From: a virus
Lineage: Duplodnaviria > Heunggongvirae > Uroviricota > Caudoviricetes
DNA length: 57,943 nt
Virus record (IMG/VR): IMGVR_UViG_643348545_000013
Coordinates: 1 to 57,943 of that record
Strand: one strand, 5' to 3'
The position numbers are program-made. Positions 36,001 through 42,000 of this stretch are shown piece by piece (position 1 is the stretch's first letter; the number at the start of each line of letters is the position of its first letter).

Positions 36001-39000
36001 CTCCATTGGGATTACCTCCGCCAGCTTCCGTTCCTGCCGCTGGCGGTTTTTTTTGCCGGTTATGATGATGCCCGGCTTTCGTTAACTTTGACTGTGACCG
36101 TATCAAGCAGTACCGGATACGTCGCTTTTGCCCCCGTGATATCTGTCAGCGTCAGCGTATCTGCTGTAAAGCCATCATTTGTCCACATCACCAGGTCAAA
36201 CGCAGACTGCTCTGCATCATCAATCACCGGCACCACTTTTTCGCTGTTATTTCCCGCAAAGCGGAAAACAACTGTATGCCAGTTATGGTCAAATGCCCCA
36301 AATGTGCCCAGTTGCGCATTCGACTCCCCCTTGTGGTACATCAGATTCAGATTTGATGCATCCGTCTGAAGGAAGAAGGACGCCAGCATGCTGTTTGCTG
36401 TCGCGCCTGACGCCCACTGCGACACCGGCCAGTACAGACCAAAGACAAACTGACCGTTAACCAGTTCGACACCCTCCGGGATCTTAAACCGCACGGCAAT
36501 TTCACCTCCCTTACTGAGAAGATTTTTTGCCTCCTCCACCGCAACAGTACGGAACATCTTCCAGGAGGTCAGTTTACCCGGCTGTTTTTCCAGTCGCAGC
36601 GCCTTCCTGCCACTGTCATCCGTCACAGTGCCTTTACCACCGGACGCATTCCACTGCTGCTCTGTCCATACACCACTGCCACTGTTCGCATCATATCCGG
36701 CCACCATTCTTGTTACGGCTTCAGTATGACCGCCTGCAGAAGTACCTGCACCCTGCTGTTGCGTCGGACCCGCAGAGCCAGACTGTGCATCCCCCGTGGA
36801 GGCTGGCGTGGTCGCCAGCGGTGCAGACTGCCCGCTCAGGAACGGCAGCAAACGCCCGGCTCGCACCAGTATCTCTCCTGCCAGCCGATCTGAAACAATG
36901 CCTCTTCGCGCCCAGGAGCTGAAGTGCGTTTTACGATCGGCTGTCGTCCAGTTACCATTACTGCGTGACGCGGCACCATAGTATCCCGCCGTGATAATGT
37001 CCGGATCTTCTGACGGCTCGTTTGTCGGCACATTCGCACCATGCTCATCCGTCATCAACGGCACAAAGTGAATATTCTGCGCCGCCTTGCCTTTATAGCC
37101 TCCGTAAACCGCCTCATACTGCACTGCATACTTCGCCTTCCAGTCGTACGTGGTGTCACCGCAAATCCACGGGACGCCGGACGTTGTCCCGCCAATACAC
37201 TGGTCTGCAATATCTGCCAGGTCTGCACGGTATTTATTTACCATGGCAAGAAAAAGTGCATTGTGCTCTGCATGTCTCCCCGAACTGACATCTTTTTCCC
37301 CCTGCATCCAGATCACCGACAACAGCACGTTTTTCGGATTTTTCTTCAGGGCTGCACGCGTTCTGCTGACCAGGTCACGATACAACGGTTTATCCACCCC
37401 CCACAGGGAAGAGCCCGCTGTCGCACCCGACGCCTCATTAAACGCGCCCTCTGCTCCCGCAGTAAATCCCGAATCGCCACGTCCACACGGGACAAGAAGG
37501 ATCCCCGCACGGGCAGGCATAAACGGCAGCAGTTTTTTGGCCACATGCAGGGCATGCCCCACACAGCCATACTGCCCTTTATTGAGGTCTGCTTTCGGGT
37601 GATTCAGATTACTCACGTCCTGCACATCATGCAGACAATGGTCTGCAGGAATAATGTCGTTATATGCACAGGCCGCACCGCCCGGTGTCACCGTGCTGCG
37701 ACGCGCCAGTTGCTTAATACGCGGGTCAGGACGATCATACGTATCCGGCAGCGGCAGCCCCTCGCCAAAAGACATCGAGTTGGACTGCCCGGCCAGCGCA
37801 ATGACAAAGTAATATTCCGGTTCGCTGGTGGTGCTGATAACAGCGCCACCATCACCCGACGGTTGCACCACCACCGGTGTGGTGACATCACCTTCCGCCG
37901 CAATGGCCTGCATCAGGGTATAGGGCGTGATGGCCACCGGACTGCCAAATGGCTGCCACCCCTCCTTCAGTTTTTGAGTCAGTCGCTCCGCAAGGTCTGA
38001 CGGCGATGCCGCCCTGACAACATCATAGTGTTTAAATGCCATGGTTCTTTCCACCATCTGAAAAATAATTCTTTAAAATACCTGACATGTAATACAGAAA
38101 AAACACAAAACCATACCTTAAATAAAAACCTCATCATCAAGCAGATATGCATGGGTAAACTACAAGACGAGATATAAACCACCCTGCATTTAAATAAACA
38201 ATAAACAACATCAGAAAAATAATTCTGCTCTATGGTTTACATTCAAAAATATCATTTATACTTTTCAGAACATCACCAGCAAGACATAAACAAGGAAACT
38301 AAATGAAGTGGATTGTGATTGATACAGTTATCCAGCCATCATGCGGAATATCTTTTTCAGTCATATGGAGTAAAATAAAATTAATAATCTGGTATCAATC
38401 GGATGCTTTCTTACCTCCTGAAAGTATATTTACACTGACTCACACAGGTATCATGCTCAATAACAAAGTGCTACCTGTAACCATTTACAACGTAGTACCA
38501 TTCAATAAAAAATTCTGGAATTTAATCAAAAACAGCCAGGAATGCCCTACAAATACAGATAACGTATTGAATGAATGCTTTAATAACCGTTGCACTCTGC
38601 AAATATGTCCTTATGGACTAAAACAACAAAGTCCATAAGGAGTTTACTCACATCTGACAAAATCAATATAAACAGCCCCTCCGGAGAGGGGCTGGAGAGT
38701 GGCGCTATGTGCCATTGCATGGTGCCGGGTGCCTCCCGGTGAGTTCAGTATCAGCACCTGAACCCGCACAGAAAGGATAAGGGTCGGTGACAAAACACCA
38801 GTTGCTGATTGCCCCTCCGCACAGGGGGATTCACCATGCCAGTTTCTTTTAACAAACTCCCCGCAAACCAGACAACAGTCAACCGCCTGAATTGTGAGGC
38901 ATTTAAAAATTTCAACGGGTAACTGATACCCTGCTAATCGCCTGATGCTTTCTTTTTCAGCAACGGGAAAGCAACAACCACCACACCCGCCACCAGCACA

Positions 39001-42000
39001 CCGTCAGCCAGCACTGACATTATCCGGCTGCTGAAGTCCACCATCACCACCAGAAACAGCAGGAGCGCAACCACAGCCAGACGCATTTTTACCGTCACAG
39101 ATGATTCTCCAGACGAAGGCCCAGGACACCGGCAATCTCTTCCAGCACCTTGCGCTCTTCCGGCTCTATTTCGCCGTCTGCTTCGGCAATGGCCACCGCC
39201 ACATCCAGCACGTCTTCCGCTTCACGCGTATCGTGTTTCACATCCTCGATCTCACGTAACGCCGCTCGACGACCAATTTTAAAGTTCGTATCCAGCTGAC
39301 CGATAATGGTTGCGCTAATCGCATTAATTTCTGACGTAAACGCGGACAACGCAGGCTGGTTACGCAAGACCTGCTCGATCTTCGCTTTCTCTGAAGCCTC
39401 ACATTCACCATCTGCATAGGCCACCAGATAGGCAGCATTAATAACCGCCTGTGCCAGATCACGTTTCTCAAACTTTTTAATTTCCACTGCCGCTCGGCGG
39501 GCTTTTTTACCAAAAATACCAAACATCGTGACGTTCCTTTGGGTGGGTGAGCCAACGCCCGGGAGCGATCTGCCCACAGAGAAAGTCACACTGACCACTC
39601 CGTAAGCTCACCCCCGAAAGGCTCTGTGGTTGATATGCGCCGGGCGTGGCGCAGATACAAAAAAAGCCCGCCGAAGCGAGCCTGATAATAAATCTGGAGC
39701 GGGTAGCGGGAATCGAACCACGATAAGAAGGTTAACAGCCTTCCGTAATGACCTTTATACGACTGACCCAAATAAAAAAAGCCACCGTTGCAACTTAAGA
39801 GTCACTAACGGCAGCTTACCCTCTAATTATGGCTAAATGGCTAATTGCATGTCAAGGCTTTTAACAGCAACATGCTTAACTTTCTCAACACGTTTACGCA
39901 TTTTGAAAGCATTTTGCATTGGTTGGTACAAAACAAATAATGACGCTTTCAGGATATCGTCAATTTCGTTTCTACAGGTTGCCAGTGAAGGTTTTCTCCA
40001 TCCCTCGCCACCGCGTCCACACATCTTGCGTGGCTTTGCAGTCGCGTGATAGTAGGATGCAATTGCTCTCTTAGATGAACCATGAGCGTAGTAGCTGAGG
40101 AGGATGCCAAAGGCTTTCTTGTCAATGTACATGACGGAATCGACGACCTGAGAAATCAACATTCCATCATCATCATTACACATTGGTCTTGTCATAACTC
40201 TTCCCGGCTCTACGCTCTCCATGAACTTCGCTATTACGCTGCTCATGCGCTTTTCCAGACGACCTGAATAACCCCATGCGCCCCACAGTTCAAGCCAGCC
40301 ATTCAGCCAATCGTGCTGTTCTTTGGTGAGGTTTAGTTCTCTTATGCCCATGCGACTTCTCCCTTGTTATCTGGAATGGTTTTTACTGAGAGCGTCATGC
40401 GGCCTCACTTCTGCTGTTTCGCAGGTCTTTGAGTTTCTGTTGGTACTCTGCCTTGATGGCCCTGCACTCTTCGACAGTCCAGCGATGGCGGTTATGGTTT
40501 GATTCGATTTCATCTACTGCTTCCTGCCCGATGCGGCTAATCAGTTCGACGCGATACGGAACGAGATTTCCGCTTTTGTGCTGGTTGCACACCACGCATT
40601 GCTTGTGAATATTGCGTTCATCAAATCGGAGTTGAGGTGCCGCAGCAGTTGTCCGGTAATGTCCGGCATCCCACTGAGCAGACGTGAGCGTTCCGCACGA
40701 GATACATGGTAAGTCGCGGTCTCTTTCTCTGATGAAGGCGTTTACGGCTTGTTGGGCTTGTTTAATCCAGTAACTGCGGGGCTTTAAGGCGAGTTTTCGA
40801 ATCTTCAGTTTATCTTTCTGTTTCTGCTCCTCTCGTCGTCGTTTCTTCTCTGCTGCTTTTTCCGCTTTTTCGCGTTCTTTACTTCGTCGTTCGAGTGCTA
40901 ATTGAGTTCCGTGTTCCGGGCAGCACCACCACTGATTTGAGAATGCCGGGTGAAACCATTCTTTGCATATTTTGCATTTCCTTCGCGCTGGTTTAGCCAT
41001 TAAGCAGCCTCCCCTGTTACTTTCAGCATTCCGTTATCGAGCAGCTTTCTGGTCAGCCACTGTTGACCACGCCCGGTGATTTTTGTGGTGAACGATATCT
41101 GTATTCCGTGATTTGTGTTGACCGCTGTTTCTTTCACTGTGAAATAGCCGCGCTCCATATATTCCTGCATTGGCACATTGCGCCGGGCACCTGAAGCAAT
41201 AAGGATTTTGTGATCGCGCATCCACGCAAACAGTTTGTTTGGACCAATTCCAACAACCTTTGCATAGTTTCCAATCAAAATTCCGCTGGCCTCGCCAACT
41301 CGATCGGCAAACTCAACTTTAGGTGCGGCAATTGCGAGCTGGTTTTCCAGTTGCATTTTCTGCTCAGCAAGATCAGCAGCAAGGCGCAACGCTTCTGGTA
41401 GCGTTTTGGGGATATTAACCGCAGTTTCTTCAAGCTCTCGCCAACGGTCAACAAGACGAGCGGTGAATTCCGGCGACAATTGGGCGACGACAATAATGCT
41501 GTCTCGCTTACCTTGTTCGCCTTCGAAGACGTAAGCCTCGACACTACGGCGCAGTCCTAAGTTATTGATTTTTTCGAAAACCTGCAATGCAGGAAGTTGA
41601 ATAACTCCAGATTTAGCCAGGCGCTCTATTGATATTTTTACGTTATCTGGACGACTCCCCACCAACTCAGCGATTTCAATGCTGGTCATTTTGATGATGC
41701 TGCTATTTATCAGCTCATTCATTGTCATGTCCTCTCATATTGAAAATTCAGCAATAAAAAACCCAGCCGAAGCTGGGTTTGTTAAGTTGTCAATTGTCAG
41801 TAGCGATGCAGTGAAGGCGGCAACTCTTTGTTCTTAAGCCTTTCCCATGCCAGAAGGTTCGTCGGCCCGTCAGGCTCATAAATATCTATATCCCGCGTGT
41901 GATTAATTAAAACGCCCCTCGCCCTCCCGATGGTATACGAGAACTCATAGCCGTAGTCGTGGCATATGCCGGAATAGCCAGACTGAATCAGTTTTAATGC

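Follow-up and report, generated by a model that had tools for sequence, protein, structure and literature searches.

The closest described counterpart of the locus analyzed here is iraL of Escherichia coli CFT073, which encodes an RssB anti-adaptor of the IraM family. IraL co-purifies with RssB and interacts with it in a two-hybrid assay, through the N-terminal domain only (PMC4045071). In the same study, deletion of iraL lowered both the level and the stability of sigma-S in log phase, and the gene proved to have its own sigma-70 promoter, to be expressed in unstressed log phase and to work from its own promoter once moved into K-12 (PMC4045071, Hryckowian et al. 2014). Here we examined IMG/VR virus record IMGVR_UViG_643348545_000013, a stretch of 57,943 nucleotides (nt) that we refer to as the window and that looks like one complete lambdoid prophage, with tail, head, lysis, nin, replication and recombination genes, a cIII element and an integrase. 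A nearly identical iraL gene lies in this prophage between the gene for the Q antiterminator and that for a NanS-type esterase. We consider it very probable that the whole Q-to-esterase stretch is an accessory-gene ("moron") slot holding three known modules: tciA-tciB, an STnc100 small RNA (sRNA) and iraL.

The other two modules also have described relatives. The P1 TciA and TciB proteins belong to the same PHROG families as the pair in the window (632 and 1470), but P1 has an additional tciC and a different genome context, and its Tci name only lists possibilities; tciA and tciB are non-essential in P1 (PMC10695390). In phage JLK-2012, whose record gives the names tciA and tciB, the order is Q, transfer RNAs (tRNAs), tciA, tciB, STnc100 and esterase, as in the window. 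Regarding STnc100, 11 copies are transcribed in strain EDL933, one of them confirmed by Northern blot (PMC5331693); the Hfq-bound sRNA EcOnc27 overlaps STnc100 downstream of stx2B (PMC12711010), and STnc100 has a relative in the sRNA PasD (bioRxiv 10.64898/2026.05.13.724894). Like described members of this family, which overlaps with EcOnc27/sRNA103, the window copy ends in the conserved GC-rich terminator and has the same place, downstream of the cargo and just upstream of the esterase. The STnc100 copy in the window follows tciB, whereas the copy overlapped by EcOnc27 follows stx2B.

A preliminary description of the window had reported, in the position that the Shiga-toxin genes (stx) occupy in Stx phages, a TerB-like protein, a small hydrophobic peptide, a terminator and an AT-rich segment with an opposite-strand open reading frame (ORF). 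Our analysis confirms that this observation is real and well described and that its positional reading is correct. The novelty that it implied does not stand: all three genes are already in the RefSeq annotation, and iraL has been characterized experimentally. The components of the slot are thus known, and the only mildly new point concerns the part of it that is oriented against the late genes, which holds either IraM-family genes or the anti-sRNAs AgvB and AsxR.

iraL, tciA-tciB and STnc100 in the slot

The late genes of the prophage lie on the minus strand of the window. The downstream edge of the slot is the NanS-type sialate O-acetylesterase gene (36060-38057, minus strand), which encodes 665 amino acids (aa) with DUF1737, SASA and DUF6645 domains and is annotated as "SASA family carbohydrate esterase" in homologous prophages. 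The AT-rich iraL module (38058-38672), which reaches from the start codon of this gene to the base of the STnc100 terminator stem, is 31.7% GC, compared with 55.3% for the esterase gene and 51.2% for the whole window. As had been described, this segment carries on the opposite strand a Cys-rich ORF of 111 aa with five Cys residues (38303-38638, plus strand).

What had gone unrecognized is that this ORF encodes an IraL/IraM protein. It scores 162.3 bits with the NCBIfam profile NF007393 (anti-adapter protein IraM; cut-off 121), covering positions 1-113 of 114 with residues 1-110, and it is identical to CFT073 IraL (WP_000871291.1) at 110 of the 111 residues. Over codons 1-107, its coding DNA has 2 nt differences from that of CFT073, and the alignment shows none in the remaining four; across the module, 634 of 643 positions match (38058-38700). 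Sequence searches against PHROGs (PHROG 4407, E=8e-73) and PDB (8TWD chain A, IraM(1-78), aligned with residues 1-78 of the window protein, E=9.3e-32) identified it as well, and in many E. coli genomes the homologous gene carries the RefSeq annotation IraM. A Pfam scan of the ORF at E<=0.1 gave no match; PF11183 (PmrD) is precomputed on all database homologues of the window IraL. By sequence, the protein is predicted to possess the N-terminal PmrD-like beta-barrel domain that contacts RssB; in IraM, this region (residues 1-78) has been crystallized with RssB (PDB 8TWD; PMC10844676). The published definition of the iraL type is at least 95% identity to CFT073 iraL across the whole coding region (PMC4045071), and the window gene falls within it.

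For the promoter, we looked for at least 96% identity to CFT073 in the iraL promoter/upstream regulatory region, together with a mapped transcription start. Between positions -100 and +33, 130 of 133 nt match. The end of the CFT073 iraL mRNA determined by 5'-RACE reads ACATCACCAGCAAGGCATAAACAAGGAAACCA / ACATCACCAGCAAGG... (PMC4045071), and this sequence starts in the window at an A at 38270, which leaves a 33-nt leader. A putative -10 hexamer, TATACT (38257-38262), and a possible -35 hexamer, TTTACA (38236-38241), precede it on the plus strand. The only differences from CFT073 in this region are at -1, +16 and +31, which leaves the promoter proper, -100 to -2, without a change.

The hairpin that had been ascribed to this ORF is also there, as a perfect 12-bp stem across the iraL stop codon (38608-38619 paired with 38630-38641, plus strand), followed by UUUAC. 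It is identical in CFT073. Since several of its pairs are broken in the STEC1590 variant (90% identical protein), its function is uncertain; it could be a weak terminator or an mRNA-stabilizing stem. A 121-nt fold containing both this hairpin and the STnc100 terminator has z = -6.9.

We also observed that four Cys residues are invariant in the C-terminal tail of IraM/IraL: C81, C92, C97 and C102 (IraL residues 81-103, window 38543-38611). They form the motif CP-x9-C-x4-C-x4-CP[YH]G, which is invariant in 13 aligned members down to 61% identity, whereas C14 varies; the four are among 32 invariant columns. The tail was cut from the crystallized IraM construct and has been described as less conserved and flexible (PMC10844676). 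It might serve the anti-adaptor as a metal or redox site, or as a switch that senses either.

On the late strand, the TerB-like protein is TciA, a soluble, acidic protein of 143 aa (39095-39526, minus strand). The strong ribosome-binding site attributed to it was found, AAGGAA 7 nt ahead of the ATG, and the TerB assignment held in profile searches against Pfam (PF05099, E=3.9e-16, 59.8 bits against a cut-off of 24.4, residues 26-138), PDB (2JXU TerB, E=6e-8) and PHROGs (632, "tellurite resistance", full length, E=3.2e-69). TciA has two ADGE-x4-E motifs and no 19-residue window with hydropathy above 1.6. The tightly following 50-aa hydrophobic peptide corresponds to TciB, a DUF3927 small membrane protein (38934-39098, minus strand) of 54 aa from GTG or 50 aa from the first ATG, which matches PF13064/DUF3927 (E=4.8e-20, 71.7 bits against a threshold of 25) and PHROG 1470 "TciB-like" (E=1.6e-24). 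It has a grand average of hydropathy of 1.45, two hydrophobic segments and a C-terminal KKK, and RefSeq annotates the same 165-nt coding sequence in homologous prophages. The GTG start and the tciA stop have 4 nt in common (GTGA), and the two genes are therefore probably translationally coupled.

Between tciB and iraL lies the STnc100-family sRNA (38664-38868, minus strand), which matches Rfam RF02076 over the full model (positions 1-206 of 206) with 137.6 bits against a gathering cut-off of 47 and ends in a strong intrinsic terminator. The preliminary description had found this terminator, a stem of nine pairs, seven of them G-C (38673-38694), followed by TTTATATT, and had missed that it belongs to the sRNA. 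By scan alone, 4 terminator-like sites were found compared with 2.2 expected; this one is more than a chance hairpin because it coincides with the 3' end of the Rfam match. The sRNA folds with -81.5 kcal/mol (z=-2.5). In an alignment of nine copies, conservation extends about 60 nt past the Rfam 5' end (CACAATTCAG, GTTGAC), whatever gene lies upstream. Relatives have an RNA of this family at the same place, preceded by stx1B in an O103:H2 prophage, by stx2cB in an O157 prophage and by tciB in phage JLK-2012. The sequence between the conserved blocks varies among copies, so their targets may differ.

Occupants of the Shiga-toxin position in related prophages

The slot is the Shiga-toxin position: it follows Q, the late promoter pR' and the terminator tR' and precedes the esterase and lysis genes, and in relatives it holds stx. 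The Stx1a-converting prophage of O103:H2 strain CEC12044 shares 64% of window positions 25000-49999 at 93% identity, and its gene order is the same from the replication genes through the capsid gene. Between its Q and esterase genes lie stx1AB, followed by STnc100 in the late orientation and by AgvB on the other strand; stx1AB thus takes the place of tciAB, AgvB that of iraL, and Q is of another type (435 nt). The Stx2c prophage of O157:H7 strain 9234 (our sequence L010) has stx2AB, STnc100, an opposite-strand IraM homologue and the esterase. Here stx2AB replaces tciAB, and the IraM homologue (WP_001303568.1), 75% identical to the window IraL and in the same sub-slot and orientation, has 107 aa and is a distinct sequence type. 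This IraM-family gene stands directly beside stx2cB and is convergent with it (L010 5104-5993). Our genome set comprised 5,426 complete E. coli genomes, and 232 of them contain the stx2B-STnc100-IraM homologue arrangement. In the literature searched, we found no paper that links IraM to Stx prophages.

In CFT073 itself, iraL occupies the same slot of the potB prophage, between Q, tRNAs and DUF3927 on one side and a DUF1737 esterase remnant on the other, in the same orientation to the late genes. There, the esterase is a remnant, the DUF3927 gene is shortened and an IS200 is present, whereas the esterase and tciA-tciB are intact in the window; Q is phage-21/Sf6-like in the window and an 822-nt "antitermination protein" gene in CFT073. 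Strains AR_0013 and 30348_1#195 and the isolated phage vB_EcoS-640R1 carry iraL in the same slot, too. K-12 IraM, also of family NF007393, is 62% identical to the window IraL and shares the four C-terminal Cys, but it has 107 aa instead of 111 and its gene adjoins ycgX and the e14 junction, not a Q-esterase slot. Its regulation and its pattern of contacts with RssB are reported to differ from those of IraL, which binds only the N-terminal domain (PMC4045071).

The stretch from the STnc100 3' end to the esterase holds opposite-strand cargo in every relative examined, either an IraL/IraM homologue or AgvB/AsxR. AgvB and AsxR (Rfam RF02702 and RF02703) are anti-sRNAs of enterohemorrhagic E. coli prophages that sit in the same reverse-oriented sub-slot as iraL (11657-11716 of our sequence L012 and 3196-3248 of L006), convergent with STnc100; they are small RNAs, whereas iraL is a protein gene. 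Rfam gave no AgvB or AsxR match in the window.

iraL-type DNA (at least 90% identity over 461 nt including the promoter) occurs in about 1,446 of the 5,426 genomes, while the K-12-type iraM matches this query at about 71%. The type is also present in isolated phages such as vB_EcoS-640R1, and a protein search with the window IraL returned 19 clusters, every organism-named one of which is Escherichia (E. coli or E. albertii). The slot as a whole was found in none of the complete genomes (0/5,426); coverage of 80% or more was reached in only 10, with 88-89% identity. It is a mosaic. The left part, with the esterase, iraL and STnc100, resembles AR_0013 and CFT073, and the right part, with the STnc100 terminator, tciB, tciA and Q, shares 99.9% identity with strain SCU-104. 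The two parts meet at 38674, at the foot of the terminator, where similarity to the SCU-104 prophage starts. In SCU-104 and FCI17, both without iraL, tciB is followed by two tandem STnc100 copies.

Alternative readings of the modules

Several points weigh against the reading of the slot as three known modules with known roles. The window IraL has K70 where CFT073 has T70 and, with the changes at -1, +16 and +31, departs from the characterized allele; RssB binding, sigma-S stabilization and log-phase transcription would be carried over to the K70 allele by analogy with the near-identical CFT073 gene. Silencing by H-NS of the iraL island, which is 29-34% GC, is a possibility. The names TciA and TciB are annotation carried over from P1. 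For STnc100, no promoter emerged from the minus-strand consensus scan, and the nine-copy alignment contained no properly spaced hexamer pair; the RNA may be a primary transcript or the processed 3' end of a late mRNA. Moreover, some EDL933 copies show ribosome footprints (PMC5331693).

Among the alternatives, the one that survives best, although we regard it as unlikely, is that tciAB is the functionally important cargo, a late membrane module for superinfection exclusion, colicin or tellurite protection, or lysis timing, in which TciB (small, with two membrane segments and a charged C-terminus) would be holin-like. The pair is widespread, slot-query DNA that includes it being present in 3,117/5,426 genomes, and it sits exactly where relatives carry stx. 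The 4-nt overlap keeps the two genes coupled, TciB has its two hydrophobic segments and KKK tail, and PHROGs places both proteins in the category "moron/host takeover". Against this, the P1 genes are dispensable, and the literature searched records no phenotype for TciA or TciB, the "prophage" literature giving only P1 annotation tables. A class II holin is annotated downstream in homologous prophages (seen there, not checked in the window). No other ter genes are adjacent either: TerC, TerD and TerZ genes are missing next to tciA, whose neighbors are the tRNA remnant and Q on one side and the DUF3927 gene on the other. TciA thus shares the TerB domain, but the locus is not a ter operon (terZABCDE). 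No defence family was matched: PADLOC, run on TciA, TciB and IraL, returned only a fragment match of TciA to PDC-S48 (E=0.0032, 14.6 bits) and nothing for TciB and IraL. With no match below E=0.003, the link to phage defence suggested for the TerB-like protein found no backing, and the anti-phage defence reading was dropped. With low confidence, we view TciA/TciB as a membrane-tethered TerB module made late in infection.

A second alternative, which we find doubtful, is that the window iraL is not constitutive but is switched by PhoP/PhoQ at low Mg2+, as in K-12, where iraM is reported to be induced by Mg2+ starvation (PMC10844676). We searched the whole window for the PhoP box (T/G)GTTTA-N5-(T/G)GTTTA with at most one mismatch. 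One of the two matches, TGTTTATTGTTTATTTA with one mismatch (38191-38207, minus strand), precedes the iraL transcription start by 63-79 nt. However, a count of two lacks significance (0.62 are expected, and 15 of 100 shuffled sequences contain at least 2), and the site lies in DNA of 29% GC, where T-rich matches are common, as shown by seven weaker ones in 38108-38292. This candidate box was consequently rejected. The expression of iraL in unstressed log phase (PMC4045071) also speaks against this reading.

It is very unlikely, in our view, that the STnc100 stretch encodes a small protein instead of, or besides, a regulatory RNA. It contains ORFs of 54 aa (38751-38915, minus strand) and 37 aa (38809-38922, plus strand), some annotators call hypothetical proteins there, and several EDL933 copies have ribosome coverage values above 1 (PMC5331693). 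Yet these ORFs start with TTG, and STnc100 copies do not preserve the frame, a different ORF, of 35 aa, being present in copy A of SCU-104; the strong full-length covariance-model match, and a family that includes an Hfq-bound sRNA, argue for an RNA.

Most improbable of all is a reading of the 111-aa ORF as silent or decaying, a remnant in AT-rich foreign DNA that H-NS keeps repressed and that does nothing to the host: its module is 29-34% GC throughout, and 41 non-synonymous against 31 synonymous codon differences from K-12 iraM do not point strongly to purifying selection over this distance (such counts between IraM/IraL family members are uninformative on codon-level selection), but the ORF is intact and full-length, with all but one residue of a functional gene, an identical promoter from -100 to -2, wide occurrence among the genomes and 32 invariant columns, the four Cys included, down to 61% identity.

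Late control of the slot and its meaning for the host

The upstream edge of the slot is formed, after NinG (40395-41000), the first feature before Q in the late direction, by a Q antiterminator gene of the phage-21/Sf6/P22 gp23 type (39833-40351, minus strand; PF06530, E=8.4e-25). The stretch with the tRNA remnant, pR' and Q (39699-40364) is 97.3% identical in DNA to phage Sf6 (gene 59). The late promoter pR', TTGACA-18 nt-CATAAT, overlaps the Q 3' end (39826-39855, minus strand), matches the consensus at 11 of 12 positions, lines up with what the Sf6 record annotates as pR' and is the only minus-strand promoter-like site that a consensus scan found in 37900-39900. It is followed by a homologue of the tR' and qut region (39774-39815, minus strand), nearly identical to the Sf6 stretch so annotated, in which we read a 9-bp stem, a 17-nt loop and seven T. 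A simple terminator scan missed tR' because its loop limit was 8 nt. A further terminator-like hairpin, AGGCTCGC-TTCG-GCGGGCTT then TTTTTTG (39664-39683, minus strand), found by consensus scan only, comes after the tRNA remnant.

The comparison with Stx phages had been extended to their tRNA genes, and here it does not hold. Only a 3'-truncated tRNA-Asn remnant is present (39700-39769, minus strand; Rfam tRNA, 32.6 bits against a cut-off of 29), while ARAGORN found no intact tRNA gene in the window. The remnant equals the Sf6 tRNA-Asn for its first ~60 nt, up to GGTTCGA in the T-arm, and then diverges, its 3' end having been replaced; hence the weak Rfam score and the missing ARAGORN call.

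The suggestion that the cargo is expressed late from pR' fits the pR' and tR' elements located in the sequence. Our model suggests that tciAB would be made only when Q lets the polymerase from pR' through tR', and that the esterase and lysis genes would likewise depend on Q-modified transcription from pR'. Because these genes lie beyond iraL and no other late-strand promoter was found, the Q-modified polymerase would have to run past the STnc100 terminator and cross iraL in the antisense direction. We hypothesize that this crossing would probably shut iraL off at induction. The companion suggestion, that the opposite-strand ORF is expressed in the lysogen, is backed by the work on the nearly identical CFT073 gene, with its own sigma-70 promoter and log-phase expression (PMC4045071). 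By binding RssB, IraL would prevent RssB from handing sigma-S (RpoS) to ClpXP. Growing lysogens would then have more sigma-S and a raised general stress response, which would make iraL a lysogenic-conversion gene.

Outside the slot, we observed other features of the prophage. A full-length OmpC-type porin gene (13072-14235, minus strand; Porin_1, E=1.8e-139), annotated ompC in a homologous prophage, lies among the tail genes, and a 396-aa protein with a YadA-like membrane anchor, a trimeric autotransporter, is encoded beyond the tail-fiber genes at the prophage end (832-2022, minus strand). An antirepressor gene with Bro-N and P22_AR_C domains (10108-11022, minus strand) adjoins a sar antisense RNA (RF00262; 11024-11090, plus strand), and together they constitute a P22 immI-like module (10108-11090) within the tail gene block. 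In the nin region, C4 antisense RNA (74.4 bits) and isrK (76.3 bits) are found at 42565-42752 (minus strand), upstream of antirepressor-type genes at 41000-41728 and 41797-42510; this is an immunity element of the P1/P7 c4-ant style. The window further contains a lambda cIII thermoregulator element (50589-50647, plus strand; 88.5 bits) and an integrase ORF with Arm-DNA-bind_2 and Phage_integrase domains (56657-57943, plus strand) that ends at the last base.

A broader reading, which we advance tentatively and hold to be rather unlikely, is that the reverse-oriented sub-slot is a dedicated site for lysogen-expressed regulators that rewire the host, with the four-Cys tail of IraL acting as a metal or redox switch. 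The occupants that may support a dedicated site are the IraM family in the window, in CFT073 and in Stx2c prophages, and AgvB/AsxR elsewhere. Through their antisense placement in the late operon, Q-dependent read-through would switch such regulators off at induction. If this is true, the host sigma-S level would be tied to the lysogeny/lysis decision of the prophage. Minor leads are the pattern of alternative occupants of this sub-slot and, in the IraM family, the tail with its four invariant Cys. TciA/TciB and STnc100 are very common in the slot, and iraL, with the wider IraM family, is placed firmly as a set of phage-borne lysogenic-conversion genes in the Shiga-toxin slot.

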